Of a stretch of DNA of 26,586 bases, positions 7,754-26,000 are shown piece by piece. The translations under genes were made by a program, and so were the position numbers. The notes below the pieces were generated by a model. It saw nothing but the letters and a program-made list of their open reading frames with translations. It ran no database searches and was not told the origin of the DNA. This DNA comes from an archaeon (GTDB lineage: Archaea; Iainarchaeota; Iainarchaeia; Iainarchaeales; 0-14-0-20-34-12), in assembly GCA_038046645.1 (NCBI GenBank), contig JBBSVU010000022.1, positions 1 through 26,586 of the forward strand, written 5' to 3'. How positions within the stretch are numbered: position 1 is the stretch's first letter; each line of letters starts with the position of its first letter.

Positions 7754-7993
7754 ATGACACAGACTTCAATACAAATACAAACAGGGCTCAAAAAAGAATT
7801 GGACTGCTTTAAAGAGCATCCAAGAGAAACTTATAATGATACTATACAAAAATTAATATACATCGTAAAAAATGTAGAGTCCAATCCAAAACTAAGCAAA
7901 CAAACATTAAAGGAAATAGAGAAAGCAAGAAAAAGGATTAATTCCGGGCAATATTTCGGCTCAGAGCAAATAAAGGCAAAATTAGGAATATGA
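7754..7993 (+). CDS. Putative antitoxin (RHH-like N-terminus) of a RelE-type TA pair
   Basis: TSIQI...KEHPRETYNDTIQKL and C-terminal EQIKAKLGI; directly abuts the RelE gene. Confidence 0.8.
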   Translation: MTQTSIQIQTGLKKELDCFKEHPRETYNDTIQKLIYIVKNVESNPKLSKQTLKEIEKARKRINSGQYFGSEQIKAKLGI

Positions 7994-8254
7994 ATGTCTT
8001 ACTTAATAAAATGGGACAAAAAGGCACTAATTTTTCTCAGCAAACTAGACAAAGATATGGCAAAAAGGATTTTTGACAAAATTGAGAAATCAAAAGAAAA
8101 TCCCAATTATTTTTATGGCGAATTATCAAACAGCACAGCGTCAAAACTGAGGGTCGGGGATTACAGGGTTGTTGCCGATATTAGCCACACAACACAAGAG
8201 ATTCGCATTTTGCTAATTGGGCACAGAAAGAATGTTTATGATAAAATGCAGTGA
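7994..8254 (+). CDS. relE: RelE/ParE family toxin
   Basis: KLRVGDYRVVADI and IGHRKNVYD; 86 aa. Confidence 0.9.
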   Translation: MSYLIKWDKKALIFLSKLDKDMAKRIFDKIEKSKENPNYFYGELSNSTASKLRVGDYRVVADISHTTQEIRILLIGHRKNVYDKMQ

Positions 8255-10106: not shown

Positions 10107-11393
10107 TTATGATTCAGGTTCTGCGCCATATACTTTTCTTAAAGCCTTTTGTGCTGCTTCAAGAGGTTCTGACTCAAGACCTAATGCATTCAAAAAATCT
10201 AACGCTGCATCAAAATCTGCTGGCTCAGCTTCATTTATTCTCCTTGTTATTAGTTCACAAAAATTAACAATCTCTGGGCGAAGTGCACTAACCTCTACTC
10301 CAATCTGTTCTGCAGCATTACGTCTGAATTGCATTATAAAGGCCTCACTAAGCTCTTCGAAACGCCTTTCCCTTGGAGGCATATCTCTCTCTAGCTCTCT
10401 CCTACTAGATTCATCTCTTTCTTCTGCTGCTTCTTCTCTGCCAGCACCTCTTTCTTCTCCTGCATCAAAGGAATCTCTTTCTTCTGCTTCCCTGTCAGAA
10501 CCTTCTTCTCTTTCATAAAAATCATCGGATTCACGTTCTGAACCAGCACGTCTTGAATCAGCAGGTTCTGAACCACTATGGGCTGCTGCCTCTTCTCTAT
10601 GTTTTCTTGCCTCTACTTTTCTTTCCAAGGCATCAATTGTTCGCAATAATTTAGCCCTTCTTGAATCAAGCTTTAATAATTCAGAGTTAGCCCTTTCAAC
10701 ATTAGTTTTTATTTGTGCAAGCCTTATAGCTTCTCTTTGCCTAATCCTTTGCTGGAAATAACCTGCATCTTTTATGTGCGCTTCAATCCTTTCTTTTGCC
10801 GTAGTAATTGCTGCTTCCCTTTCTGTTTTTACACGTTCTAATTTATCTGCCTTTGCTTTGGCGCCTGCAACTCTTTTCCCTCTCCAATTAGTCCTAAAAT
10901 TTTTAAGAAGCCATAAATCTTTTGCAGCATCTAACCTTCTTTGCTTATATGCATGAATAGCTTGCGCTTCTGAAAGCCTTACTTCTGCTGCAACTAATTT
11001 TGGATTTAATTTAACCTCAATTTTCTGTTGCTGGGCAGATACTTTTCTTGCAAATCTAGCAACTTTTTTTGCTGCTCTTTTAACGCCGAATTCTCTGGCA
11101 GCACTCTCAGAAGCTCTTTTAGCAATCTCAGTATCAGTGTGCTCTGCTACAAATTGCTGCAAACGCTCAATCCTTGAATTTGTTTTGCCTAAAGCCAATC
11201 TTGCAGCATTCAATCTGCCTTCTGCAGCAATATATCTTTGATAACCTAACCTAATGCCTGCCCTAACAGGCAAGCTAACTGCTTTAAAAAAACCGCCAGC
11301 TTTTCTTGCAAAAGGGGAAATCCTTTCACCCAAAGGTTTTCTTTGTGATTTCCTTGCTATCCTCCTTAGAAGATTAATTCGGATTGGCGGCAT
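10107..11393 (-). CDS. Hypothetical coiled-coil protein with a very basic N-terminal two-thirds and an acidic E/R-rich C-terminal region
   Basis: Long open frame with A/R/K-rich helices, then EREEGSDREAEERD-type low complexity. Likely start is MPPIRINLLRR at 11393. Confidence 0.75.
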   Translation of the reverse strand: MPPIRINLLRRIARKSQRKPLGERISPFARKAGGFFKAVSLPVRAGIRLGYQRYIAAEGRLNAARLALGKTNSRIERLQQFVAEHTDTEIAKRASESAAREFGVKRAAKKVARFARKVSAQQQKIEVKLNPKLVAAEVRLSEAQAIHAYKQRRLDAAKDLWLLKNFRTNWRGKRVAGAKAKADKLERVKTEREAAITTAKERIEAHIKDAGYFQQRIRQREAIRLAQIKTNVERANSELLKLDSRRAKLLRTIDALERKVEARKHREEAAAHSGSEPADSRRAGSERESDDFYEREEGSDREAEERDSFDAGEERGAGREEAAEERDESSRRELERDMPPRERRFEELSEAFIMQFRRNAAEQIGVEVSALRPEIVNFCELITRRINEAEPADFDAALDFLNALGLESEPLEAAQKALRKVYGAEPES

Positions 11394-11588
11394 AAAAATC
11401 ATTATTTGCAAAAATCATTTATTGGCAATATACTAATATATGCAAAAGGAGGTATTAAAACCTATTTATTAACTGAATAACGTTAAATAAGTTAGAATTG
11501 AAATGAATCTTTTAATATTTGGCATTTTAGAGATATTTAACATTTAGAGCTTGTTTAAATCTTAAGGTATTTGGCAGTTAGGATCAAG

Positions 11589-12887
11589 TTAAATTTTAGG
11601 ATACCTAGCTTTTGTGCCAAGGTATTCTTCTATGCGCAGAAGCTGATTATATTTACACAGGCGGTCTGTGCGGGCTGGAGCGCCAAACTTAACAAATTTG
11701 GATTGCAATCCGACAGCCAAATCAGCAATAAATGTTTCTTCTGTTTCTCCGCTTCTGTGCGAAACAATAATCTCCCATTTTGCTTTCTTTGCAAGCTCAG
11801 CTGCCTGCATTGCCTCTGTCAAAGTGCCTATTTGATTTACTTTTAAAAGCAGTGAATTGCAGGCTTTTTTAGAGATTGCTTTTTTTATCCGCAAGGGATT
11901 TGTAACGAGAAGGTCATCGCCGACAATCTGCACTTTTTTTTCAAATTCCTTAGTGAATAATGAAAAAAATTCCCAGTCCTCTTCTGAAAAAGGGTCTTCA
12001 ATTGAAATAATCGGGAATTTTGAAATCAAATCCTTGTAATAATCAACCATTTCGTTTGCAGAATATGACCTATATCCTATTTTGTATTTTTGCAAGTCTT
12101 TATTGAACAATTCTGAAGCAGCGCAATCCAATGCAAAGGCAAAATTATTTTCATAACCCAAATTATCAATTGCCTTTGAAATGAATTCCAAACGTTTTTC
12201 TGCATTAGGCAATTCCTTTGGGGCAAAACCGCCTTCATCGCCAATTAAGGCAGCTGATGGGCCAAATGATTTTTTCAATAATGCTTTTAATTCATGATAA
12301 ACCTCGGAAGAAATCCTTAATGCCTCGGAAAAAGATTTTACATTCACAGGCACAATCATGTGTTCCTGAATATCATTATCTATGCCTGCGTGCTTTCCTC
12401 CATTTATCACATTTAAAAATGGAATAGGCATATTGAAATAATTAGGCTTTTTTGCATGTTTGTTTTCTAAAGAATTGGAATAATCAAATAAATATTCAAA
12501 CAGCTGCTTGTTTTGCGAGGCAGCTGCTGCTTTTGCACATGCAAGTGAAACAGCAAGGATTGAATTTGCGCCCAAATTACTTTTATCTTTTGTGCCATCC
12601 AATCTGCGCATTAAAGAATCTATTTTTTCTTGGTTTGTGCAGCTTAATCCCTTTATTTTTGGTGTAATTATTTTTGTGATATTTGAGCAGGCTTTTTTTA
12701 CTGATTTACCGCCATATGCTTTGGAATTATCCCTTAGTTCAAAGGCTTCAAAAGAGCCTGTTGAACAACCAGAAGGAACACTTGCACTAAAAAACCCGCA
12801 TTCTGTTTTTAATTCACATTCAACTGTCGGATTGCCCCTTGAATCAAGGATTTCGCGGCCTTTTAAGGAAAGGATTTTATCACACAT
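11589..12887 (-). CDS. eno: Enolase (phosphopyruvate hydratase)
   Basis: REILDSRGNPTVE, PSGCSTG, NGGKHA, GDEGGFAP, SIEDPF, VGDDLLVTN, LLKVNQIGT and SHRSGET. The true start is probably 12887; the track extension to 12965 runs through non-coding DNA. Confidence 0.97.
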   Translation of the reverse strand: MCDKILSLKGREILDSRGNPTVECELKTECGFFSASVPSGCSTGSFEAFELRDNSKAYGGKSVKKACSNITKIITPKIKGLSCTNQEKIDSLMRRLDGTKDKSNLGANSILAVSLACAKAAAASQNKQLFEYLFDYSNSLENKHAKKPNYFNMPIPFLNVINGGKHAGIDNDIQEHMIVPVNVKSFSEALRISSEVYHELKALLKKSFGPSAALIGDEGGFAPKELPNAEKRLEFISKAIDNLGYENNFAFALDCAASELFNKDLQKYKIGYRSYSANEMVDYYKDLISKFPIISIEDPFSEEDWEFFSLFTKEFEKKVQIVGDDLLVTNPLRIKKAISKKACNSLLLKVNQIGTLTEAMQAAELAKKAKWEIIVSHRSGETEETFIADLAVGLQSKFVKFGAPARTDRLCKYNQLLRIEEYLGTKARYPKI

Positions 12888-12912
12888 TAGGCACAAGAAA
12901 GAGCAAAAAAGA

Positions 12913-12953
12913 TTTAAATAGAACGATTGTTCTGTATATAGAACGATTGTTCT
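12913..12953. promoter_or_regulatory. Shared TATA box plus two tandem palindromic operators upstream of the MNT-HEPN module
   Basis: TTTAAATA at 12913-12920, then AGAAC-GATT-GTTCT at 12920-12933 and 12940-12953 (an identical 18-mer at 20-bp period). Confidence 0.65.
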
Positions 12954-12954
12954 G

Positions 12955-13091
12955 TGACGCTCCATGGGCTGAAGCCCATGGCGTCTTTATATTAGTGGGC
13001 TTCAGGCGGAAGCCCAATACAGAAAAAAATGAAATGGGTGCGCTCCTCTCCAACCTGAAGGTTGGAGCTTCCGCGCACCCATGGAGCGTCA
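12955..13091. mobile_element. 137-bp non-autonomous hairpin element (IS200/IS605-derived MITE/PATE-like)
   Basis: GC-rich island with a perfect 14-bp terminal IR TGACGCTCCATGGG/CCCATGGAGCGTCA. Internal hairpins CCATGGGC-TGAA-GCCCATGG, TGGGCTTC..GAAGCCCA and CTCCAACCTGAAGGTTGGAG. No TSD. Confidence 0.75.
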
Positions 13092-13099
13092 GTGATAGT

Positions 13100-13648
13100 A
13101 TGTTTGAAAAATATGGGGGAGTAAAGGTATTGGGGTTTATTACAAGAAACCCATACAATGAATTCTATCTTAGGGAGATTGCAAATAAATGTTCGATGGC
13201 CCCAAGCAATGCAAAAAGAATACTTGACTATTTGTGCGAAATAAATATTGTTTCAAGTACAAAAAAGGCCAACTTAGTCATGTTTAAAGCAAATGTTAAT
13301 TCACCGCTTGTTAAACAAATAAAAATATGCTATTCTTTGAATAATATTATGGGAAGTTCATTGATTGAGAAAATTAAGGAAGAACTCTCTGCTATCTCAA
13401 TAATCTTATTTGGAAGCACAAGCAAGGGTTTGGACGATGAAAACAGTGATATAGACCTTTTGGCAATAACTAAAAATCCAAAAAAAATTGATCTAAGCCC
13501 ATATGAAGAAAAGATTGGTAAAAAAATAAACCTAATTAGTTATTCTTTTAATGAATGGCAGAAAAAAGCAAAGGAAGACAAACCTTTTTATGAGAACATA
13601 ATAATGGCTGGAATAACCTTACATGGGGAAACCCCTGTGGTTTTATGA
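13100..13648 (+). CDS. wHTH + minimal nucleotidyltransferase (MNT) antitoxin
   Basis: EFYLREIANKCSMAPSNAKRIL (HTH) and ILFGSTSKG...SDIDLLAI (GS/DxD). The true start is the ATG at 13100; the track extension to 12839 is spurious. Confidence 0.9.
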   Translation: MFEKYGGVKVLGFITRNPYNEFYLREIANKCSMAPSNAKRILDYLCEINIVSSTKKANLVMFKANVNSPLVKQIKICYSLNNIMGSSLIEKIKEELSAISIILFGSTSKGLDDENSDIDLLAITKNPKKIDLSPYEEKIGKKINLISYSFNEWQKKAKEDKPFYENIIMAGITLHGETPVVL

Positions 13649-14076
13649 ACTTTGAGGATTGTTTGGAAAAGAGATTGCTAAGGAAAGAAAAATCAGACAT
13701 TGAAAAAGCAGAACTTTCTCTGAAAATTTCAGAAGAAAGGATAATTGATGCACAAATTGCAAAGGATGCTGAATTATATTCAGCAGTTATTGTATTGGCC
13801 TATGCTGCAATGTTCCATGCTTCCAGGGCTCTTTTATTCAAAGAAGGATATGTGGAAAAAAGCCATATATGCCTGATTGAATTTGTAAGGAGATTCTATG
13901 TGGATAAAGGAATTATTGAGAAAAAGTTTATTCCCATATTAAACAATGCCAGAGAAGAAAGGCATGAAGTTTTGTATGGTTTGACCAAAAGAGAGACAAG
14001 GGAAGAAGCAGAATATATTCTCAAAGAAGCTGATGAATATCTAAAAAAAATAAATCTGATTATAAATAAAAAGTAA
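13645..14076 (+). CDS. HEPN domain toxin
   Basis: AYAAMFHASRALL, EKSH and REERHEVLYG; ATGA overlap with the MNT gene. Confidence 0.9.
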   Translation: MNFEDCLEKRLLRKEKSDIEKAELSLKISEERIIDAQIAKDAELYSAVIVLAYAAMFHASRALLFKEGYVEKSHICLIEFVRRFYVDKGIIEKKFIPILNNAREERHEVLYGLTKRETREEAEYILKEADEYLKKINLIINKK

Positions 14077-14121
14077 AAAATTAAATATAGGGCAAATTTG
14101 AGGGATTGGGGCAAATCTGAG

Positions 14122-16689
14122 CTATCCAAACAGTTCAGAGACCCAGTCTGAGAAGTCTGAAGCGCCTTGCTTCACCTTTTTCCAGGCATAGGAATATTCT
14201 TCAGAAACCTCATCTGCCTGGGATGATGCTATTGATTTTAATTTCTTCCAGGCATATTGATACTGGTCGCCAACATCATTAAAATAATCCTTGGTATAAC
14301 CATACCATTTTGAAAATACCGAGCACATGCCAGATAACTTATCAGAACAGGAAGTATAATACTCCTTTATTTTAGAACCTAGATGAGAGAATAACCCTGC
14401 TGAATCCTCTGCACTATCCGGCTCGCCATGGGATGCATTCCATTCGCTTATCCAGTCTGAGATTTTTTTGCAGGCTTCTGTCATTGTGGATGTTTTTGTA
14501 CCGGTTTTGCAGTCTTTATAATAAGCCTCAAGCCAGTTTGTTATTCCATTTACTGTTGCAGTAGCAGCAGTACTTGAAGGGCTTATTGTTAAGGCAGTAT
14601 TTGTTTTTTCAAGATAGAATAAATAATCATAGGCTTTTTCATCAACACATGCTAAGCATTGTAAAACTGAAGAACATTGCTGGCATTTTGCAGACGGTGT
14701 TGGCCCGGGTTCTGGATTTGGGATTGGCTCTGGGTTAGGCAGTATTCCGCCTCCTCCTTGTAATAATATCTTTGCAGAGATGACCCTCCAAGGGTAACCT
14801 GCCTTTCCAGGGTTTGAATAAGCAGAAGACATAATTAGCTTTATCGTTTTTGTGCTTTCGTCTACTTCACATTTAGATATTCCGCCACCACAACCCCAAT
14901 TATGGCCTGCTGCAGCTGCTACCTCTGCCACACTTATGCATTGATTTTCTAAGCCTTTTACCAATGCTTGCATATGCTTCGCAGTGCAATTGCCTTTATA
15001 TTTCTCATTTAATCCTTTTTTAATGCATCCAGAAACATTGCCTGCGATTGCTGCTTTTATATTGGTTCTTGAATCATCCCATTTGGCCCAACAACTTGTA
15101 TTACCGCATTTACAGCCAGAACAACTTCCTCCTTTATCTGGGCAGTGATATTTTATGGAAACCTGCATTAATCCGCAGGAATTCATCCCATCCCCACCTA
15201 AATTTTGATTAAATCCTGTTTCAATCCAGGCTACTGCACCCAAATAATATTCTGGCTTGTTGTAAAAAACATCATAACCGACAATATCATTTAATGCAAC
15301 ACCTTCTTCTTTCATAATATTCAAAATATACTCTCCGGTTTTCTTGTCTGTTTTTTTGCGGTAACTCGCTGCATTTGAAGCAGAATACATCCTATGGTCA
15401 TGCGAGCCGCCAAATTTCTGCTCTAAATAAGTATCCCCTACCTTGCCTTCTTGGCCTGCCTTTAATATCAATCCAACAGTTTCTGAACCCTCAAATTGCT
15501 CGCCATTAACTGCTGCTACTGAAATCACAGTATAAACATCTGGCTGACCTGCTGAAGGGAATTCGCATTGCACTGATTCAACTGTCGGCAATGCTCCTGA
15601 AGCTCCTGCTGCTGCAGCTGCTGATCCTCCAGAAGGGCTATCACCACCTGCTGTGCCTTCTACACTTGATGCAACAGCAAGGCATTTACCTGCAAAAATA
15701 TCGCCAGCATCATCATATTTATGCGAACATTTATTGCTGGAACAGTGGCTGTTTAGGAAACATTCTTCACCTTCAGCTAACTTTTTTCCACAGTTGCCTA
15801 ACATAGGGTTAGAATATTCTTTTTTTACTTTATCATATTTGGTAAAAACAGAATTTATGCAAATTCCTGAGCTACAATCACTTCCTACCCAGCATTTTTC
15901 AGCATCATTTAATTTTTTTCCACATTTACCGGCAACATAACCTGCTTGTACGCCAGCAATTGATTTAGTAGAATGATTTCCTAGGCAAACAAGGCTTTTT
16001 GATGAATCACATTCTGCATTTTTTGAACATGCACTGCCTTCACCCTTGACCGAACCAGCCTGAGCTGCATCAATCGCAGTTGCGGCTTTTTTTGCTGCTT
16101 CATCAGCTAGCACTTTTTCCAATAATGCAACATCTGAAAATCTTATTTCATTAACAATTAACTGCTTGAATCCTGCGCTTAGCGAATCCCAGGTAATATC
16201 AAATTGCTCATAACTTATGCTAGGAGTAAAACCAGAACCGTAATTAAATTTAAACTGCATATCTTTATTGGTCCAGTAATCCCACACCGTAAAACTGGAT
16301 TTATCATTCAAAATCCTAGGCATATCAAATTTTATTATCTTAACCTTTGTTGAGCCTTTTATGACATAAACATTAATCCTGTTTGACTGGGTAAGGCTGC
16401 CTAAATTTGAAGGTATGGCAATTGTTTGCGCAATATCATAGGTTTGGGAAGGGCATACAAAACTAAGGCCTGCAAAAGAGCATTTCTCAACCTTAATTTG
16501 AATATTCTCAATCAATGGCCCGCCTTTTGTCGGAGTTGGCTCTGCACTGGCTGCTGGATTTGATCCTACTGCAGCAATAGGCGCAACAGCGGTTGTTACT
16601 ACACCTAAAGCACCGCCAGAAGTAACTGCAAAAGCTGAAGAAAAAATAAGGATTAAGAAAATTAATGTAAGATATTTATGCAAAGCCAT
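14122..16689 (-). CDS. Secreted multidomain protein: Cys-rich repeats + lysozyme-like/lytic transglycosylase domain + Pro linker + Trp-rich helical tail
   Basis: Signal peptide (MALHKYLTLIFLILIFSSAFA). Three C-x5-C repeats. SLT-type motifs AVAWIETGF, GLMQVS, DSRTNI, AAGHNWG and GYPWRV. PNPEPIPNPEPGPTP linker. Confidence 0.8.
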   Translation of the reverse strand: MALHKYLTLIFLILIFSSAFAVTSGGALGVVTTAVAPIAAVGSNPAASAEPTPTKGGPLIENIQIKVEKCSFAGLSFVCPSQTYDIAQTIAIPSNLGSLTQSNRINVYVIKGSTKVKIIKFDMPRILNDKSSFTVWDYWTNKDMQFKFNYGSGFTPSISYEQFDITWDSLSAGFKQLIVNEIRFSDVALLEKVLADEAAKKAATAIDAAQAGSVKGEGSACSKNAECDSSKSLVCLGNHSTKSIAGVQAGYVAGKCGKKLNDAEKCWVGSDCSSGICINSVFTKYDKVKKEYSNPMLGNCGKKLAEGEECFLNSHCSSNKCSHKYDDAGDIFAGKCLAVASSVEGTAGGDSPSGGSAAAAAGASGALPTVESVQCEFPSAGQPDVYTVISVAAVNGEQFEGSETVGLILKAGQEGKVGDTYLEQKFGGSHDHRMYSASNAASYRKKTDKKTGEYILNIMKEEGVALNDIVGYDVFYNKPEYYLGAVAWIETGFNQNLGGDGMNSCGLMQVSIKYHCPDKGGSCSGCKCGNTSCWAKWDDSRTNIKAAIAGNVSGCIKKGLNEKYKGNCTAKHMQALVKGLENQCISVAEVAAAAGHNWGCGGGISKCEVDESTKTIKLIMSSAYSNPGKAGYPWRVISAKILLQGGGGILPNPEPIPNPEPGPTPSAKCQQCSSVLQCLACVDEKAYDYLFYLEKTNTALTISPSSTAATATVNGITNWLEAYYKDCKTGTKTSTMTEACKKISDWISEWNASHGEPDSAEDSAGLFSHLGSKIKEYYTSCSDKLSGMCSVFSKWYGYTKDYFNDVGDQYQYAWKKLKSIASSQADEVSEEYSYAWKKVKQGASDFSDWVSELFG

Positions 16690-16700
16690 AATCTCAACCG

Positions 16701-18665
16701 TTATTTAACCTCAATGCCATTTGCTAATTTGAAGCTGTCAAAATCAACCGGCTCATTGAAATCAATCTCAAAGTTATATTTGCCTTGTTCCAAATCAGTT
16801 ATTTTTAGGGCATATGTTCCGGTACTTAATTTTATCAGGCTTGAGTAAGCATAAATATACTCTTCCGTTTTAATGTCTGCACCTTCGCCCTCTATTTTGT
16901 AAACCTTTAATGCAGTTTGGAACAACCCCTCAAGCTTTTTAGTATCGGCAATAATATCCCCTAATAAATCATAATCATTCTTTGTGCATGGCTTTACCTT
17001 GCAGCCTTTTTTCTGCTCTGCCTGCGCTTTAAGCGCATTTACTATGTTTGTGACATCTGCTTCATATTTACTATCTCTTTTTGGATCGCATAGCCCAATC
17101 TTGGAAGTCATTTTTACATTATCAAAAAACTCTTCTCCATTGCAATTCCCTGATTCACATTCAGTGTTAAAATAACACATCTGACCAATTGCTCTTTTTG
17201 CGCTGCAGATTCCTGTAATTATATTTTTATCATTTATTTCATGTGTCGGTGCAATAAATTTCCCTTTTTTCCAGCGTGGCCCATAACAGATAAGGCCTTT
17301 CTCACAATCATTGTCTGTCAAGCAAGGATCCTCTGCACTACCTCTTGAATCGGCACAATATCCTGCCCTAAGGTCACTTAGATAAACGCCATTAAATTTA
17401 GAGTAATATAGATTTTTGCAAAAATTGCTTGCACAATCAGCATTAGCATGGCAATCTATTCCAGAATTCAACTTAACTGAGCATCCACCGTTATGGAATT
17501 CAGAAAGCAAGCTTGTTTTTACAGTCTTTTTGGAATGATAGGAACCAATACAATCAGGTTTTCCGTTCTCTTTTTCGCAATCTGCATCCTTTGAACATTT
17601 GGTTGTGCAGCCTAATTCCATAATCCAAATTTTGCTTGCAGAATCAGTATCACAGCGCTTGTACTCAACCCCTGAAGAAGCATAAATGCAATTTCCGTAT
17701 GCTTTGCTGTCTGAAGCCCTTTTCTTTGTTATATTGCATTTGGTGTTAAAGCCATATCCGCAAGAAGTGTCTGAAGTGCAGAAACATTTCCCTGAAACAC
17801 AAATTGATGACACGCCGTATTCGGCAACCGTCCCGCCTAACAATGATTTGCAGTCATCATCAGTATCGCAGGAATCTGGCACAATAAGTTTGCAAACTCC
17901 TTTTGCATTCTTTTCAGCATAACTTTTTATGTCACAAATCACAGTCCTCTGCTGTTTATCTTCCAAGCCCTCTTTTGCACAAGCTGAATCATTAACACAA
18001 GCGGCATTAGGTGCACTGACCTTTTTTAAAATATTACTTGCTGCATTATTTGCAGCCAATTTATTAAGGAATGCTACGCTGACATCTACTTTTAAAATAT
18101 CCAAAGAATTAGAACCATGGGTATCATGCAAATACGTAACTAAAATATTGCCATTGTCAAATTCTACTGGCCCGATTTCAGCATCATCAAAATCCTCGCC
18201 ATGCCCTTCAGCTATTGCATTGCCTTCGGAATCTTCAATAACATAATCAGTTATATTGTCTATTACCCCTACAAGGCTATTTGCTGAACATCTTGCAGCC
18301 CCTTTATAGGTAAGATAATTAGTTGCATCGCCTAGTCTGGATAAATAAAACTTATAATAACTCACTGGGCACCACTTTAATTCATCTGGTTCTATCCAGA
18401 AAAAAGGAAATTTTTTACCTTTAACAATTATGCCTAATTCAATTTTATCTTCACCGTTAAGCTCTGGATTATTTAAAAGGCCTGTATCGCCAATGAAGGT
18501 AACATAAGTATCGCCCCAAAGTGGCTGGGAAAATGATGTACTGCTATTTATGCCTGACCTATCTACATAACTCACATATGCATCAAATTTGGTGGATTTT
18601 GCGCTAATGCTTAATGAGATTAAAACAATAAATGCAAACAAAAGGATAATTTTTTGAACGTTCAT
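16701..18665 (-). CDS. Secreted Cys-rich repeat protein
   Basis: Signal peptide (KIILLFAFIVLISLSISA) and about seven C-x5-C modules (CVNDSAC, CDTDDDC, CTSDTSC, CSKDADC, CHANADC, CLTDNDC, CYFNTEC). ATGA overlap with the upstream gene. Confidence 0.8.
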   Translation of the reverse strand: MNVQKIILLFAFIVLISLSISAKSTKFDAYVSYVDRSGINSSTSFSQPLWGDTYVTFIGDTGLLNNPELNGEDKIELGIIVKGKKFPFFWIEPDELKWCPVSYYKFYLSRLGDATNYLTYKGAARCSANSLVGVIDNITDYVIEDSEGNAIAEGHGEDFDDAEIGPVEFDNGNILVTYLHDTHGSNSLDILKVDVSVAFLNKLAANNAASNILKKVSAPNAACVNDSACAKEGLEDKQQRTVICDIKSYAEKNAKGVCKLIVPDSCDTDDDCKSLLGGTVAEYGVSSICVSGKCFCTSDTSCGYGFNTKCNITKKRASDSKAYGNCIYASSGVEYKRCDTDSASKIWIMELGCTTKCSKDADCEKENGKPDCIGSYHSKKTVKTSLLSEFHNGGCSVKLNSGIDCHANADCASNFCKNLYYSKFNGVYLSDLRAGYCADSRGSAEDPCLTDNDCEKGLICYGPRWKKGKFIAPTHEINDKNIITGICSAKRAIGQMCYFNTECESGNCNGEEFFDNVKMTSKIGLCDPKRDSKYEADVTNIVNALKAQAEQKKGCKVKPCTKNDYDLLGDIIADTKKLEGLFQTALKVYKIEGEGADIKTEEYIYAYSSLIKLSTGTYALKITDLEQGKYNFEIDFNEPVDFDSFKLANGIEVK

Positions 18666-19261
18666 CCGCACACCTCTTCAAGTGCCATAAAGCTTGATTT
18701 CATTGATTCGAAATCCTGATTTGCAAAATATTCCATTTTTCCCAAATACTCAAAATTTAAAGATTTGATATCTGCATCATCTTTATATTTTGAGGTTAAT
18801 GTATCCAACTTAGATTGTTTCAATGCAATCATTGGCAAAATATCTTTATACAACGCAAGGAAATCATCCTTGAACTGGAGCAGATTGCAGGAATCATCAG
18901 TTATTGCCAATTCTGCCTCTTCTGACTTTATTAATAATAATTTATTCTGTTTTAGTTCATCGGCCAAAGAGGAATAAACATCTGCCAATAATGCAACCTT
19001 TTCTTCATCCTTGCATTTTGATTTCAATGAAGAAAGCTCAGCTTTTATTGAATCTAAATCTGCATCCTTAATCTTGGTTACTTTATCTGATTCATATGTT
19101 TCTAATGAGTAAATATCAATGCCTTTGCCGGAAAAAGCAGCTGTTAAATCTGAGGTAGAAACAGTGCAAGGCTTTGCTACTTGCTGCTCTTCCTGCTGAT
19201 TAATACAGCCAGATAAAAAGATTAATATAATAAAGAATCCTAAAAACCACTTAATTGACAA
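18662..19261 (-). CDS. Putative lipoprotein, helical
   Basis: MSIKWFLGFFIILIFLSGC lipobox-type signal; TTG start preceded by SD GGTGAT. Confidence 0.8.
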   Translation of the reverse strand: MSIKWFLGFFIILIFLSGCINQQEEQQVAKPCTVSTSDLTAAFSGKGIDIYSLETYESDKVTKIKDADLDSIKAELSSLKSKCKDEEKVALLADVYSSLADELKQNKLLLIKSEEAELAITDDSCNLLQFKDDFLALYKDILPMIALKQSKLDTLTSKYKDDADIKSLNFEYLGKMEYFANQDFESMKSSFMALEEVCG

Positions 19262-19344
19262 AGTATCACCATTTCCAGTTAATTATTGATTTATTAGAAT
19301 ATATAAGAATATATATTAATGAATATAAATAGCTTTGCATCAGG

Positions 19345-19962
19345 TTAGCTGCTTCTTTTTAGCAACTCAAGCAATTGCAGCTTCTTAAGCTTGTACTGCC
19401 TTGGGGTAATGTTGAAATAATCAAAATCCTTGAAGGAATTTATGATGTCAAAAAGATGCCTCTTAAATCCTAGTATCTTATATTTTTCCAATATGCCTGC
19501 ATATTGCTTAAAGTCAAAGTGGCAATTAAGGAGAATGGAAATAATGTCAATCCTGTCTTTCAACCCTTTGCTTGAATGTGCCCGGTCCTGCTCTGCCTGC
19601 TGTTTTAATAGGATAAGATATTCTGGTTTCAGAACCTTAAATCCTTGTACTTGATTAACCTGTTTGATCAGATCCTCTGTCGGAATTATGAATTTAGAAT
19701 AATAAGGAACATAAATATCTATATCGATTTCATCAATAATTATTTCGTATTTGTTAAGTTTAACATTCTTCTTAAGGGCATAATTATTCCTTATCTTTTC
19801 AAGCTCAGTAAAATCAACTATCAGATCAATATCCCTAGATTTATTTGTTTTAGCGTAAAGGTATGCTGCCCAGCCGCCAATAAGGACAAAATCAAATTTT
19901 CTTTTGAAATCCTGCAGAACTTGCCAACTCCTTTCAGTTACAATATCATTCCAAAATTCCAT
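19345..19962 (-). CDS. Nucleotidyltransferase, AbiEii-like toxin
   Basis: FVLIGGWAAYLY, SRDIDLIV, LILLKQQA and KGLKDRIDI; overlaps the upstream HTH gene. Confidence 0.8.
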   Translation of the reverse strand: MEFWNDIVTERSWQVLQDFKRKFDFVLIGGWAAYLYAKTNKSRDIDLIVDFTELEKIRNNYALKKNVKLNKYEIIIDEIDIDIYVPYYSKFIIPTEDLIKQVNQVQGFKVLKPEYLILLKQQAEQDRAHSSKGLKDRIDIISILLNCHFDFKQYAGILEKYKILGFKRHLFDIINSFKDFDYFNITPRQYKLKKLQLLELLKRSS

Positions 19963-20536
19963 TTATTCTCAACTCCAGCGCTTTAATAAAGTCAGAAGAA
20001 TACCATTCCCCTAAATTCCAGATATCAACAAAGGTCTGGGCCAAAGAAGTTATCTTGCCATATCTTTCCATGGCCGCATCTTTTAAAATCACAAAAAGAT
20101 TTGGCTGCCCACTTTTACTTGGAAACCTTTTTTTTATTTCATCCAAGGAATCTGCATAAACATACACTTCAGAATAATCAGCAGGCACTTCTTTGAAACT
20201 AAATTTGTATGCAGAATATGCGCCAAATAAGCAATTTGCAGGGATATTTTTTTCAATCTCAGAAATAGAAATATCGACCCTTGTTTGATACACCACATCC
20301 TTAGCCAAATTTCTTACACTTGCCCAATACAGCAAAATTTTTTTTGGATTAGTAATTTTGAGATTCATCGGATTAACTTTAATTGCATTCATTCTCCTTA
20401 ATGGCTTAAGGGCAAGGTTTACTGTGGATAAAGACATTCCAAGCAAGCTGCTTAATTCTTTCTGCGTCAGCAAAAAATTATTCTTCTCCAATGCCTGGAA
20501 TAAGAGTTCTCGATATACTAATTCTACCTTATTCAT
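19946..20536 (-). CDS. wHTH transcriptional regulator, AbiEi-like antitoxin
   Basis: TQKELSSLLGMSLSTVNLAL (HTH), KILLYWA, FGAYSAY and AQTFVDIWN. Confidence 0.8.
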   Translation of the reverse strand: MNKVELVYRELLFQALEKNNFLLTQKELSSLLGMSLSTVNLALKPLRRMNAIKVNPMNLKITNPKKILLYWASVRNLAKDVVYQTRVDISISEIEKNIPANCLFGAYSAYKFSFKEVPADYSEVYVYADSLDEIKKRFPSKSGQPNLFVILKDAAMERYGKITSLAQTFVDIWNLGEWYSSDFIKALELRINGILE

Positions 20537-20558
20537 AAACGATACTTAGGGCAAAGAA

Positions 20559-20586
20559 TATTTAAAGGTTTCGATATTTATCGAAA
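20559..20586 (-). promoter_or_regulatory. TATA box and palindromic operator of the AbiE-like module
   Basis: TTTAAATA (minus strand) at 20559-20566; perfect IR TTTCGATA-TT-TATCGAAA at 20569-20586. Confidence 0.6.
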
Positions 20587-20695
20587 GGTACAAATAATCT
20601 GTAGATTAAGGAATATGCACCCCCAAAAAGGGCTTACAGAGCTTAATGCAGAACATATTCCCCCATAAAATTATTTTCATCAACCGGATTTGCCA

Positions 20696-20824
20696 GCTGC
20701 CCCGCTTCAGAATAAAAAAAGGGTTCACATAATGAAAAGTTTTGTAATGGTCTTTGAAGTGGATGAAAACAAAAAGATTGTAAGGATTTTGGATCTTAAC
20801 CACCACGATAATATTTACCGCTAA
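20696..20824 (+). pseudogene. C-terminal remnant of a RelE/YafQ-like toxin
   Basis: Hand translation AAPLQNKKRVHIMKSFVMVFEVDENKKIVRILDLNHHDNIYR* resembles the RVH...FVL...DHHDxIY end of archaeal RelE-like toxins. In-frame TAA at 20666-20668; no antitoxin nearby. Confidence 0.65.
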
Positions 20825-20903
20825 AATCAAAAGAAAAGAAAAACCATGGAAGTATTTAATTAACCTTCGTTTCTAATTTTGTTGGCAAGAATTGAGGGAG
20901 ATA

Positions 20904-21800
20904 ATGAGGCTTTTTGCGGGCAGCTCAAACATTGAACTAGCTGAAGAAATCACTAATTCTTTAAAACTAAAGATAAGTTCAAGCGAATTTGAAAGATTTT
21001 CAGACAGGGAATGCATTGTAAGGATTAAGGAAGAAATTAAGGGAGAAACAGTTTATCTAATTGAAAGCACTTGCAACCCGGTAAATGAAACCGTGATGGA
21101 ATTATTAATAATGGCAGATGCCTGCTTGAATAATGGTGCGCATAAAATACATGCTGTTATTCCGTACTATGGATACAGCAGGCAGGATAGAATTAGTATT
21201 CCTGGGGAGCCTGTTACCACAAAATTGATTGCAAAGCTGATTGAAGCTTCAGGCATTTCAAGTGTTACAACAATGGATATTCATTCAAAAGCAACTACTG
21301 AAGCATTTAATATTCCATTCAATGATTTGCATTTTACAAACACTTTAATCAGGTATCTGGAAGGCAAGATAAAAAAAGGGAAAAAGGATTTTATGATTGT
21401 TGCGCCAGACCATGGTGCTTTGGAAAGGGCAGAAAGGATTGCAAAAGCATTGGGAATTGACTCAACATATATTGAAAAGAAAAGAAGCAAGGCAGAAGCT
21501 ATTTCAACAATGGAACTAATGGGAAAGGTAAAGGGCAAAAATGTTGTATTGGTTGATGATTTGATTGGCACAGGCGGGACAATAATTAAAGCAGCAGAAT
21601 TATTGAAGAAGGAAGGTGCAGAAGAAGTATCTGTTGCAGCTACTCATGGAGTATTTGCAAATGATGCAATTGAACGCTTGAATAATTCTTTGGTGAATGA
21701 TATAATTGTTTCAAATACAATTCCGCAGAGAAGAAGGGTAGATAAATTAACTGTCTTAAGCGTTGCTGAAGAGTTTGCTGATTTTATAAAAAAAATTTAA
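20904..21800 (+). CDS. prs: Ribose-phosphate pyrophosphokinase
   Basis: FAGSSN, PYYGYSRQDR, MDIHS, VAPDHGA, LVDDLIGTGGT and ATHGVF; RBS GAGGGAG before the ATG at 20904. Confidence 0.96.
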   Translation: MRLFAGSSNIELAEEITNSLKLKISSSEFERFSDRECIVRIKEEIKGETVYLIESTCNPVNETVMELLIMADACLNNGAHKIHAVIPYYGYSRQDRISIPGEPVTTKLIAKLIEASGISSVTTMDIHSKATTEAFNIPFNDLHFTNTLIRYLEGKIKKGKKDFMIVAPDHGALERAERIAKALGIDSTYIEKKRSKAEAISTMELMGKVKGKNVVLVDDLIGTGGTIIKAAELLKKEGAEEVSVAATHGVFANDAIERLNNSLVNDIIVSNTIPQRRRVDKLTVLSVAEEFADFIKKI

Positions 21801-22178
21801 CTATTTGATAAACAAAATATTTGGAAATCCTCGGAAAGCTTCATCCCCAGTAACAAACACCAAATCATTTTCTTTGGCAAGAACATATCCAATACAATCA
21901 GCATAAGAAAAATTCTTGGAATAATTTTGCTTCTTAAATTCAGCAATCTTTATCAAATCATTTTTGGCAATATCTATAATCTTTGGCTCCAACATAGATA
22001 ACAAACGAATAACTTTGTCTTTAGGGAACTGCTTTAATAAGGCATAAGCTAGCTCTGCAAGATTGACCATAGAACAATAAACAGTTTGACCTGCAAAGCA
22101 AGAATAATTTTCATTGCCTTTTATTATTTCATACAGCGCGTATGTGTCCAAGAAGTTTCTTGTCTCTCCTTGCATCAT
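21801..22178 (-). CDS. vapC: PIN domain (VapC-type) toxin
   Basis: FLDTYALYE, NLAEL, FSYADCIGY and FVTGDEAF (PIN acidic residues). Confidence 0.9.
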   Translation of the reverse strand: MMQGETRNFLDTYALYEIIKGNENYSCFAGQTVYCSMVNLAELAYALLKQFPKDKVIRLLSMLEPKIIDIAKNDLIKIAEFKKQNYSKNFSYADCIGYVLAKENDLVFVTGDEAFRGFPNILFIK

Positions 22179-22386
22179 CTTCCCTCATCAAATCCTTAAC
22201 CTTCTGTGCACTTAGTTTTAGAGTTTTTGCGGCCCCAAAAACTTCTTTTGACAAAACAGGTTCTTTTGTTTTGATCTCTATGACTATGCATTGGCGTTCC
22301 CTGATATTTGCTTTTTTAACTATTTCTGCAGGCAATGTAACCCCTAAAGAATTGCCCCATTTTCTAGTGGTAGTAGTAATTTCCAT
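22129..22386 (-). CDS. vapB: AbrB/MazE/SpoVT-type antitoxin (VapB)
   Basis: TRKWGNSLGVTLPAEIVKKANI; overlaps the PIN gene. Confidence 0.9.
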   Translation of the reverse strand: MEITTTTRKWGNSLGVTLPAEIVKKANIRERQCIVIEIKTKEPVLSKEVFGAAKTLKLSAQKVKDLMREDDARRDKKLLGHIRAV

Positions 22387-22420: not shown

Positions 22421-22903
22421 TTAAACCCTTCTAGCCACAGTTGGGACTTTTACTGCTTTACGCACAGGTCTCACACCTGCAGCAGGAGGATTTTCAAAAT
22501 AATAAAGAGCAGCGTTTGCCGTCCTAGCAAGCCTAAAGTCTGCAGAATGCAGTGCTTTTGAGATAATGGTTCTGGCATTTCTCCTTGTTCTTCCGCTTAA
22601 TTTGTGGGAAATATCAGCTAGGCCCAACAAGGCAGCCCTTTGAACGATTAAATCTTCTTCAAGCGCCAAAGGCCTTAGCATTGAGAATATTCTTTCTGCA
22701 TGTTTGGAACCAAATTTGCTTTTACCATATTCTGCCAAAGCAATAACTGCAGCCCTTCTTTGCCTTCTATTCGATGAATTTAATTCAGCAGAAGCCTTAT
22801 CAAAAAAATCCTGCTTATCATTAACCTTTGATTTTCCGCGCCAGATTCTTTTTATTGCAGGCAGAATTTTTATTCGCTTTAAAAATGCAGGCAATCTGGG
22901 CAT
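22421..22903 (-). CDS. Basic HEAT-repeat-like protein
   Basis: LNSSNRRQRRAAVIALAE, EEDLIVQRAALLGLAD and LHSADFRLARTANAAL resemble HEAT/PBS-lyase repeats; Arg/Lys-rich MP- N-terminus. Confidence 0.7.
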   Translation of the reverse strand: MPRLPAFLKRIKILPAIKRIWRGKSKVNDKQDFFDKASAELNSSNRRQRRAAVIALAEYGKSKFGSKHAERIFSMLRPLALEEDLIVQRAALLGLADISHKLSGRTRRNARTIISKALHSADFRLARTANAALYYFENPPAAGVRPVRKAVKVPTVARRV

Positions 22904-22974: not shown

Positions 22975-23074
22975 AGCCATAAAAAAGCAAATAAGCATTA
23001 CAACAAACCTACTGCATTCTTTGAATAGCCATAAAAAACAAATAAACATTACAACAAGCCTACTGCATTCTTTG
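22975..23074. repeat. Tandem duplication (~52-bp period) spanning the stop codon of the large gene
   Basis: Copies at 22975-23023 and 23027-23074 differ by two substitutions and one indel. Confidence 0.9.
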
Positions 23075-26000
23075 TATTATTATTGGCCTTTTAATGTCTG
23101 TAGTTTCAATTAAAATTGTCGGAGAGTTACCCTCCTCAATCAAGCTTACCCTTACTGCATTATTTCCCATTTGGGATGCAGGCACTTCCCTGACAATGAA
23201 ATATCCAACAGCTTCAGGGTCAAAATCTGTTAATACAATAACATCTTCACTCAATCCTTTTGCAAAAGAGACTGATGAGAATGGCTGTTGTTGCCCAAGC
23301 AGGCCAAACTGATGGACACCCTTATCTGTTTTAGACCATACCAAAAATTGCTGTGTATTGGATCCGCCAAATAACACACTTGGTTTAGAGGCTGCGGCTG
23401 ATTCAACCTTTGCTGGGGAAGGCAGTGCCCTAGTCTTGCTGGTATATTCCACAGGCACAGCAGTATCATAACCACTTGCTTTTGCAAGGTCATCTGCAAT
23501 AGCCTCAGGTGCAAATTCATCTATTATTATTTCATTGCCTATTTTTTTGCCCAAAAATTTTCCTTCGCTTCTCCTTAGAAAACTAATATCCCAAGATACC
23601 TTGCCTGCATTTTGGCCTTTTGTGATTAATGAAGGGGTATCTCCCCTAACCCAACGCTGTGCCTCTTCCCATGCTGCCTTGTTTACCCTTAAGACAGTTT
23701 CATTATCAGTAAAAACAACATATTCTGCTGTTGAAGGTTTTCCTGCTGCATACTTTTTAAAGAGCGTATGGAATGTTTTGCTATCACTAACTGATATTAA
23801 TTGAGCATCTAAAGTCTCTAAACCTGTCCATTCTGAATTCGCTTTCAGTACAGAATCTTTTATTGCTAAATCTAGCCTATATTTTTGGACAGAAACGCCT
23901 GCTTCTGTTTCAATTGCTGTATTACCAACAAATGCTTTCATCTCTGGAAGCTTTTCTGTTTTGTTAAAAGATGAAGCTAATTTCATATCTCTTTCAACTG
24001 CATCAAGCACAGCTAGCGACTTACTTGTGGTTGTAGAAGCTGCTTGTGGCAGGTCACCAATAACAATATCAACAGGTTCTCTCCATAAGGAGCCTTTTAC
24101 ACTCATAAAATATTTTTCATCAACAGTAACTAATCCTTTATTCCCCCCTTTAACTCCGGCAAAGAATCTGACTTCAGGGCCTCTTGCAGTTATATCAATA
24201 ACATTTATGTTTCCTTTTAGAGAACCTTGAAGTGCAGAAGGTATTTGTTCTTGTGCTACTGTTGCCGGATAATTTGAGGCTAATTTTCCTTCTAAGGATA
24301 TTTCAGAGACTTTTATTGGCGAAATTGCCCCTTCTGCCTTTGAGCCAACCTTAACCACTGTTGCAACTGTTGTTGTTTTTTCCATGCCTAAAGCAGCACG
24401 CAGGTCTTTTGCATAAGGTGCAGGAGATACTTCCAAAATGTCTATTGCTTTCTCTACTATTGTTTCTGCTTCTTTCTTCGGATAAAACAAACCGTGCTTT
24501 TTTAAAACCTGGACAATATCATCCGGAAGATCATAAAGCGCATTAGAAAGATTTTTCCCAAACAACCTAGAATTGAAATACGCACTGCCTTCATCAACTA
24601 TTGTATTAAGGCTTGCTGCCCTACCGTTAGGCATAATTCTTACTGCTGGCACTTTATAGCCGCTTTCTACAAGCAAACTTTCTACCTCAGGAGTAATATT
24701 AGAGGTTTTCAATCCAGCAAAAGGATAATGCAAATTAGTTTCATAAATGCCTTTTTCCATTAAATTAGCATATATCTGCTCAACAAGTTCTGGATGATTT
24801 CCATATGCCTCTAAAATTTCTGCTTGTGCTTCTGCAGGAAGACTGGCAAATCGTGCATGAGTTAATTCATGACCTACTGTTCCAGTTAAGCTTTCAATAA
24901 ACTGAGCCTCGCCTCCCTGTGTCCAAACATGGCTTCCTGTATACACTCGCAGGGTTTCACCTGATCCTCCTATGCCTTTACTAAAATAGCCACCCGCGTT
25001 AGGGTCTCTAGTCCCTAACTCTACAATACCTTTAAATCCTGGGACATCTGCTTCAAAGCCAGCAACTACTGAAGAATCAAAAGTTCTTCTTACTGCAGAC
25101 AATGCTTCCTTTTGGGCAGTCTGAGAAAACCTTTCTGCCCTAGCAATTAATCCTTGCGGCAAACCTGCATTATTTGCAGCATTTGAAAAAGCCAAGGGAT
25201 TGCCTGAAACAGCTGCTAAATTTTCAACTGTTTCGGGGGCTAAACCTGCTTGTGTTACTGCAGTAACAGGTTCAAGCGATTCTTCTATGGATTCAACTGC
25301 TTCAGCAAAATTTTTAATTTCTGGGATTTCTGAAACCTTCAGTTTAGATAATTGTGCTGCTTGATCCATTATTGCTTCAAGCTCCTTCATAATTTCAACA
25401 TCCTGCGAAGCTGCAATGCCATTTTTTTCAAGATAAGAAAATGCCTTTCTTAATAATTTGGATTTTGCAACTAATTCACTTAATGTTTTAGGATCTTTTG
25501 GAACTGCCAAATAGCCTCTGCCCGTATCAAACAACAAACTTTTTTCCAGATCCCAGATTTTCATGGTTCTTCCTGCAATTGTGGCTTCATAATTTGGCAA
25601 TTGGGCAATAGCGGGAATTTCGTTTGGCGCAATGTCTAAAATAAAATGTAAAAAAGAGCTTTGAGCTGATTTTGCTTTTAGTATCAGTTTATTAACATTC
25701 CAAGTCCTGTATGCCATAATGGGCTTTGCAGTAATCCTTGCTGCCAAATCATCAAAAGGGCTATTTAAGATTGATTTAAGCTTACCTAATTTTGATACAT
25801 CTTTTGCTGCATCACTTGCTTCAACCAGAGGAAGGGATTTTCCTGCTGCAGCCAATCTTTGAGCCCTTGTTGCATAGACTGATGCCTTTGCACCTAACTT
25901 TACAAAAAATCCCACGCCCATAGTAATTAATGTCATCGCAGCCATTTCTGTGTTGGTAAAGCCTTCAAGCACTGCAAGGTATTGTTCAGATTTTTGTTTG

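Follow-up and report, generated by a model that had tools for sequence, protein, structure and literature searches.

The three genes at positions 14,122 to 19,261 of contig JBBSVU010000022.1, from an archaeon of the order Iainarchaeales (phylum Iainarchaeota), form an operon that we read as one copy of a cassette of that order: the gene of a membrane-anchored protein (the anchor) precedes those of variable secreted proteins, the final one of these proteins bears a tag of 30 residues, and the whole would display wall-cutting cargo on the archaeon's own surface. We hold this reading with about as much confidence as doubt. It rests on a recurring order of closely coupled genes, on two conserved families (anchor and tag) that are found together, on the exchange of cargo between genomes and on a lysozyme fold with a glutamate at the catalytic position in the last protein. 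That the tag binds the anchor directly, and does so in an antibacterial role, we put forward only tentatively.

The window (the whole stretch of 26,586 nt that was analysed) is one whole contig of a genome of 1.17 Mb with 35-36% GC and a completeness of 89%. A public contig identical to it over 13068-21900 may be the source itself, pieces from three other studies match too, and the sequencing runs that contain the stretch are DNA runs, from groundwater wherever they are labelled. A preliminary description of this DNA had placed three co-oriented genes here, an ATGA overlap and an 11-nt gap between them, and the coordinates of the open reading frames (ORFs) bear this out: the ATG of the middle gene P0002 overlaps the TGA of the anchor gene P0003, and the tagged gene P0001 begins 11 nt past the P0002 stop (Table 1). 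P0001 and P0002 have a signal-like N-terminus and no later membrane segment. None of the three products matched a family in Pfam, NCBIfam or PADLOC, which agrees with the earlier remark that this is not a recognised described system, and they match no curated surface-layer (S-layer) or pilus accessory family in Pfam and NCBIfam. A scan for promoters and terminators, with signals of bacterial type, stayed at chance level. What the preliminary description overlooked is that the conserved elements are the anchor family and the tag.

Matches to P0001 in other families of the order are confined to residues ~650-700, where a Pro/Thr-rich linker is followed by the consensus C-x2-C-x2-[IV]-x-Q-C-L-A-C-[IV]-D-x-K-F-V-x2-[VI]-F. 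With a model of 9 rows the tag was found in 47 of the 196 genomes of the order, and with one of 48 rows in 72 of the 215 genomes of the phylum, all of them Iainarchaeales among the matches listed; the larger model found none in two families of the order, f10 (0/38) and f31 (0/7). In 36 of 47 proteins the tag lies at most 20 residues from the C-terminus, and with the tag masked the 47 sort into 17 clusters. No protein examined has more than one copy, and one protein of 95 residues consists of a signal peptide and the tag only. It is also the best conserved part of P0001, at 97% vs 85% overall in a close relative and 61% vs 17% in a genome of the same genus (G001). Its inner Cys pair is invariant. 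The outer pair is complete in 38 of 48 tags, absent from 8 and half present in 2 (3, 15 and 1, respectively, in a later set of 19), and because its two cysteines are lost together nested disulfides fit better than a four-Cys metal site. In the predicted structure (predicted local distance difference test, pLDDT, 82.5) a turn joins a short helix to one of 17 residues, and there was no Pfam match, no sequence match in the PDB and no Foldseek fold match at E <= 0.001. Word-based protein searches returned 12 tag and 14 anchor proteins, and wherever an organism was given it was Diapherotrites or "archaeon", which is weak evidence that tag and anchor are restricted to the phylum. Inspection of P0002 had suggested a degenerate tag in the middle proteins, and iterated profiles found none. 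Elsewhere in the same genome a metallophosphoesterase-like secreted protein (C16:2075-3235) has the tag directly behind its signal peptide (L012:1504-1602).

The anchor P0003 has an N-terminal hydrophobic segment with a lipobox-like LSGC at residues 16-19, followed by a predicted helical domain, and its Cys125/Cys198 pair is invariant in a 19-row alignment of the family. Two paralogues occur in its own genome, one of them upstream of the other tagged lysozyme gene, and in the order as a whole the family is present in 96 of 196 genomes with one to four copies in each. The hydrophobic N-terminal segment is found in 51 of 52 anchors and a lipobox like that of P0003 in 1 of 52. No Pfam family is common to the 19 members, whose weak matches are to helical proteins only, and neighbours sought by Atlas features and by structure were all below threshold. 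Searches of Pfam, NCBIfam and the PDB recognised neither the anchor family nor the tag.

Tag and anchor are linked in the genomes that have them. An anchor is present in 37 of the 47 tag genomes, and it lies on the strand of the tag within 10 kb in 14 of the 14 genomes used for the anchor model and in 9 of 33 held-out genomes, where 0.45 would be expected; of these 33, many with short contigs, 10 have an anchor on the same contig at all, and four of the nine positives are congeneric with training genomes. The larger tag model brought in 25 more genomes; in 9 of these (0.14 expected) the anchor lies upstream of the tag within 6 kb, which is 9 of the 10 that have any anchor. The usual layouts are anchor-middle-tagged, anchor-tagged and tandem repeats of both. 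The gene after the anchor encodes a hydrophobic N-terminus in 52 of 52 cases and follows within 100 nt in 50; of the 52 genes, 18 are tagged, 33 are untagged and 1 is another anchor. The preliminary description had proposed a fixed complex of three proteins, which does not agree with the free swapping of the large genes across the order, 53 anchor-following genes making up 26 sequence clusters; these genes have no detectable domain in common, and neither phmmer nor hhalign (best probability 6%) found one shared among the middle proteins. A complex prediction for the anchor (residues 28-199) with the tag scored 0.02 and counts neither for nor against binding. In many genomes the tagged gene also stands tail-to-tail with a second operon, of three secreted proteins (~180-290, 600-700 and 720-920 aa) with immunoglobulin (Ig) repeats. 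At 32 of 58 tag loci this operon is within 3 kb. Ig-like families of Pfam match its members, and S-layer and choice-of-anchor models do so below threshold.

What does the tag carry? Of 63 tagged proteins from other genomes, 19 match a Pfam family at E <= 0.001 and 44 do not. Twelve of the 19 are wall hydrolases: SLT in nine (one with M23), Amidase_3 alone, GH3 with Amidase_3 and M23, and a glucosaminidase below its cut-off. The remaining matches are to PKD, fn3, Lon_C and a coiled coil. Five of the tagged SLT cases belong to one genus, but at least six families of the order have tagged hydrolases; the count of 12 in 63 leaves out six hand-picked neighbours, one of which (L060:1708) has Amidase_3 and a weak tag. 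Past residue 60 a membrane segment is absent from 64 of 67 tagged proteins, which would therefore be either released or held non-covalently. One tagged protein of at least 1766 aa (L085:1281-6578, minus strand) joins M23, GH3 and Amidase_3, three different wall-degrading activities, in one chain.

P0001 itself runs from a signal peptide through an N-terminal domain, Cys repeats, a Gly/Ala linker, a lysozyme-fold domain and a Pro linker to the tag and an aromatic-rich tail. The lysozyme-like domain of the preliminary description is supported by profile, by fold search and by a Glu at the catalytic position. Residues 425-648 have two paralogues in their own genome and two in G001, and in the alignment of these five members Glu490, F493, SCG[LI]MQ and a final Tyr are all 5/5, in agreement with the GH23/SLT pattern of a catalytic Glu that closes a helix and is followed by S/T-x-F and GLMQ. 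Glu490 aligns with Glu35 of lysozyme, and the likewise invariant Ser504 with the second acid at the Asp52 position, so that the second catalytic Asp of C-type lysozymes (GH22) was not found, and because Ser504 replaces this acid the domain would be a single-Glu enzyme. When searched against the PDB, the profile of the domain family found c-type lysozymes (best E 1.4e-5), and the first 38 rows of a wide VIA fold search with the model are lysozyme-superfamily chains, headed by g-type lysozyme (Z 7.8, root-mean-square deviation 3.5, 147 aligned) with MltF at 7.0 and MltC and SltB1 both at 6.5; Foldseek against the PDB gave none at E <= 0.001. The G001 orthologue of P0001 (P0004) matches Pfam SLT with 26.4 bits (cut-off 21.3) and has AYNSG where P0001 has GHNWG, at the position of the A-Y-N-x-G motif of GH23/SLT. 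The domain is predicted to cut bacterial peptidoglycan. Its subfamily comprises 36 proteins at E <= 0.001, and 8 at E <= 1e-10, among 1.84 billion representatives, two members being fused to Amidase_2 or M23 domains. The genome has five lysozyme-like genes in all, two of them ordinary SLT genes, and SLT is present in 58 of 196 Iainarchaeales genomes, including 7/7 of family f31. Matches of P0001 to PHROG tape-measure proteins were put down to the composition of its linker and aromatic tail. A paralogous run in the same genome (C16:9780-15882, minus strand) consists of an ordinary SLT gene (383 aa), an anchor paralogue (211 aa) and a Cys-rich protein of 1428 aa, which has a long unannotated region in common with the 1310-aa lysozyme paralogue.

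Conservation of the neighbourhood, which the preliminary description had proposed as a check, was found in G001, where the operon has the same gene order between the same flanks. Over the aligned parts its three proteins are 44%, 25% and 27% identical to those of the window, as against 73-91% for six flanking genes. P0002 consists of a signal peptide, an N-terminal domain (49-210), a Cys-repeat region (223-526) and a C-terminal domain; its G001 orthologue, with 5 Cys, shares the N-terminal domain and lacks the repeat region altogether, and P0004 is without the N-terminal domain and the aromatic tail of P0001. A glycine-rich hydrophobic stretch at ~45-90 of the G001 middle protein (L013:6158-7399) is glycine-zipper-like and absent from P0002.

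The Cys repeats themselves are real. The two large proteins have 34 Cys apiece, and in each the module G-x-C-x2-4-K/R-x1-4-G/A-x2-3-C-x5-C-x-S-x2-C occurs exactly twice in strict form, as against a mean of 0.0005 matches in shuffles of the same Cys-rich regions, and the shared module of the preliminary description is thereby confirmed; one further ORF of the genome also carries two strict copies. Cysteine knots as the core of the system did not hold up, as the middle gene of G001 encodes no repeats and Cys-rich secreted proteins are common in the genome: among its 104 secreted-looking ORFs 16 have at least 3.5% Cys, and the two large proteins rank 9th and 12th. Because the repeats are absent from the G001 middle orthologue, they would seem to act like exchangeable spacers, and the repeat profile matches only one protein in the neighbourhood set from other genomes. 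A likeness to Dickkopf/EB modules, suggested earlier, survives as a lead in the C-x5-C spacing and in the nearest Atlas models of P0002, which are Dickkopf_N/EB clusters, mostly from Myxococcota; it is a resemblance only, with template-modelling scores of 0.17-0.24 (under the bar, for a P0002 model of pLDDT 0.50) and no Pfam match. Nor did the search for Dsb/PDI-like oxidases that had been recommended find a DsbA-type (PF13462) or VKOR (PF07884) oxidase in the 89% complete genome.

How might such a cassette work? All three proteins would be exported by Sec and folded with disulfides, and the anchor would remain in the membrane. The amphipathic helix of the tag may dock non-covalently on a surface partner, most simply the helical bundle of the anchor, with the Cys repeats and linkers as rigid spacers that would keep the enzyme at a distance from the cell. 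With its single Glu, the active site would work as in lytic transglycosylases, and its target would be the wall (peptidoglycan) of bacteria touched by the archaeon. In its fullest form this would be a plug-and-socket display of the Iainarchaeota, in which a stapled tag fits into an anchored helical bundle and peptidoglycan-degrading enzymes and adhesins are exchanged on it. These archaea would then live as contact-dependent predators of bacteria, or as episymbionts on them, armed with a polymorphic cassette that runs through the lineage; we consider this possible and, on the whole, doubtful.

A number of our observations weigh against the display of wall-cutting cargo by an anchor-and-tag cassette. 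No anchor was called in ten of the 47 tag genomes, the first (9-row) tag model gave no tag for 59 genomes with an anchor, and family f10 has anchors in 20 of 38 genomes and tags in none. The tag at C16:2144 of the window's own genome has no anchor within 10 kb, and the gene directly behind the anchor is untagged in 33 of 52 cases, as it is in the window. No Pfam family ties most of the cargo (44/63) to wall attack, and with hydrolases in 1 of 29 untagged cassette genes their enrichment among tagged ones is weak (p 0.056, kin not being independent). Many SLT genes of the order appear to lie outside the cassette, f31 having neither anchor nor tag. As for the enzyme, P0001 is the one member of the five that Pfam SLT does not match, the AlphaFold2 model of the domain is middling (pLDDT 63.8, with domain residues 74-111, the active-site loop, below 50), and the best VIA Z is under 8 in a list that has a chitinase and a cellulase lower down.

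Might the partner of the tag be something other than the anchor? It could be the Ig-repeat surface proteins, the anchor then serving as a chaperone or as a tether for the gene right behind it. The neighbouring Ig-repeat operon speaks for this, in that 18 of the 32 tag loci that have it within 3 kb are without an anchor in the fetched stretch, as do the S-layer and choice-of-anchor resemblances of its products; moreover, a beta-sandwich with a small helical tag is the layout of cohesin and dockerin, which this arrangement would resemble. However, the Ig homologues of the window's own genome are on a different contig from the window (C8, 19.3-23.9 kb), with ~15 kb between them and the closest tagged gene, and the adjacency elsewhere may be ancestral gene order, and we think this explanation unlikely. 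It is quite unlikely, too, that the tag is a target-binding module, that is, a new domain for binding cell walls or glycans, which would guide enzymes, once released, to bacteria instead of tethering them to their producer. In adjoining catalytic wall-hydrolase domains it does recall LysM or PG_binding_1 in modular hydrolases (PMC12352652), but it is single-copy and is found on proteins made up solely of signal plus tag or PKD plus tag, the cargo is much less well conserved than the tag, and genetic linkage ties the tag to a membrane protein.

The remaining alternatives concern the purpose of the whole. If the cassette were a variable surface coat or set of adhesins, such as an S-layer accessory, its lysozyme fold might act on chitin or an archaeal glycan or just bind sugar; the 44 of 63 tagged proteins without an enzyme family, the presence of PKD, fn3 and Ig domains, the GH23 chitinase and GH124 cellulase in the fold list, and a fast divergence that might also reflect escape from viruses would all suit such a coat. 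Against it, amidases and M23 peptidases, enzymes that cleave the peptide portion of peptidoglycan, occur with the same tag or in the same polypeptide, and the lysozyme domain is the best conserved part of catalytic size (92% vs 80-87%) with its Glu kept, and we regard the coat as improbable. The fixed heterotrimer of the preliminary description, in which shared cysteine knots form an adhesin and link the two large proteins, would account for the tight coupling of the three genes, the shared repeat and the synteny in G001. It seems very improbable to us, given a G001 middle protein without repeats, a repeat profile that finds a single protein in the neighbourhoods of other genomes, and the abundance of Cys-rich secreted proteins in its own genome.

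If the operon is a display cassette, its closest functional parallels are cohesin-dockerin display, of the cellulosome type, and the WxL/csc clusters; nothing in it matched dockerin or cohesin in sequence. Cohesin-dockerin systems have a small terminal module behind a Pro/Thr linker, unrelated secreted cargo and a membrane-anchored protein nearby, and the cassette likewise has a small terminal tag behind a Pro/Thr linker on unrelated secreted cargo, with an anchored protein next door. Unlike a dockerin, however, the tag lacks duplicated calcium loops and is a helix hairpin stapled by disulfides (0/48 tags match dockerin families, a PDB profile search gave none, and the tag model is a single hairpin), and the anchor is helical, no cohesin beta-sandwich having been found among 19 anchors that share no Pfam family and whose weak matches are helical. 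The WxL/cscABCD cell-surface clusters of Gram-positive bacteria (PMC1534035) are also operons whose products are all exported by Sec, and combine variable cargo and a member anchored in the membrane with a non-covalent module that they share, whereas the cassette is archaeal, disulfide-based and built on a 30-residue module; the WxL domain and the CscA-D families matched none of the three proteins, the anchors or the tags. Our best reading is that the cassette would work like one or other of these systems, by analogy and without homology to either.

For the enzyme there are archaeal precedents, in large extracellular murein-transglycosylase proteins of Woesearchaeota and Pacearchaeota (fam00969; PMC8204110) and in GH23 in Lake A metagenome-assembled genomes (PMC9723730). 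With these DPANN GH23/SLT proteins P0001 shares a secreted lysozyme fold, one Glu in the catalytic position, GLMQ, large size in a DPANN archaeon and a proposed contact with bacterial walls; it differs in coming from another phylum and in being a divergent Cys-rich subfamily tied to a tag and an anchor, of which the relevant passages of those reports make no mention. The modular peptidoglycan hydrolases with which archaea kill bacteria (PMC12352652) are similarly secreted, with domain shuffling and a patchy, arms-race-like distribution. That survey demanded a known cell-wall-binding domain, and because P0001 has none it would escape the count; neither "Iainarchaeota" nor "SLT" appears in its main text. 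A literature search, conducted mostly among papers outside subscription, found no description of the tag, the anchor or the cassette. We conclude that the enzyme taken alone belongs to a known kind and that the anchor-and-tag cassette is a variant of modular surface display that spans the order and is as yet undescribed.

The published support for the idea that any DPANN archaeon lives on bacteria is the presence of murein transglycosylase genes, and the cassette adds to this a lineage-wide genetic structure in which several unrelated wall-hydrolase families stand on one tag beside one anchor family. The tag is, in addition, a handle for listing the cargo of an uncultured phylum, and the 44 of 63 tagged proteins that have no family are candidate new wall enzymes or adhesins. 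At 30 and 170 residues, tag and anchor are of a size that allows their binding to be tested directly, and the pair, if confirmed, would be a mechanism of display new to archaea and a compact module for tethering proteins.

Table 1. Coordinates of the cassette, its parts and its neighbours (window positions unless another contig or locus is named).
Feature	Position	Strand	Remarks
Anchor gene P0003	18662..19261	-	199 aa, TTG start
Variable middle gene P0002	16701..18665	-	654 aa; no tag
Cys-repeat region of P0002, residues 223-526	17088..17999	-	two strict module copies
Tagged cargo gene P0001	14122..16689	-	855 aa
Cys-repeat region of P0001, residues 221-336	15682..16029	-	two strict module copies
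Lysozyme-fold (GH23/SLT-like) domain, residues 425-648	14746..15417	-	profile, fold search, alignment
Glu490	15220-15222	-	invariant in 5/5 family members
GLMQ motif	15163-15174	-	in lysozyme-fold domain
GHNWG motif	14893-14907	-	in lysozyme-fold domain
Pro-rich linker ahead of tag	14698-14739	-	P0001
Tag, residues 663-695	14605..14703	-	C-x2-C-x5-C-x2-C helical hairpin
Aromatic-rich C-terminal tail of P0001, residues 700-855	14125..14592	-	absent from G001 orthologue
Flanking nucleotidyltransferase (MNT) + HEPN pair	12839..14076	+	Pfam; convergent on cassette; outside conserved system
Flanking helix-turn-helix (HTH) + DUF6036-like nucleotidyltransferase pair, upstream	19345..20536	-	outside conserved system
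Ig-repeat operon	L062:9929-14615, L054:4373-9208, L050:2668-7991; own genome C8:19259-23888

The operon had further been described as bracketed by MNT-HEPN and AbiE-like toxin-antitoxin modules. Pfam upholds the former, and none of the libraries tested gives the name AbiE to the latter, whose nucleotidyltransferase is DUF6036-like with a score below the cut-off. Such bracketing is kept in G001, but it is not constant at other loci and was rejected as a defining feature. Four toxin-antitoxin-like pairs lie within the 27 kb, at 7754-8254 (ParE-type), 12839-14076 (MNT-HEPN), 19345-20536 (HTH and nucleotidyltransferase) and 21801-22386 (MazE-PIN). Between the enolase and MNT genes an element of 144 nt (12953-13096) has three copies that are 100% identical (contigs C8, C9 and C16) and several more diverged ones (75-92%), and public contigs end at its borders; it looks like a small dispersed repeat or a miniature inverted-repeat transposable element. 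The ORF at 23060-26586 (minus strand), which runs off the contig end, encodes at least 1174 residues with no Cys and with a HELTH (HExxH) motif, and had no Pfam or PHROG match. The products of two other minus-strand ORFs, at 10107-11411 and 22421-22903, have very basic, Arg-rich N-termini, and that of the former also has a tail of acidic character, while G001 encodes several paralogues of it at the same position.

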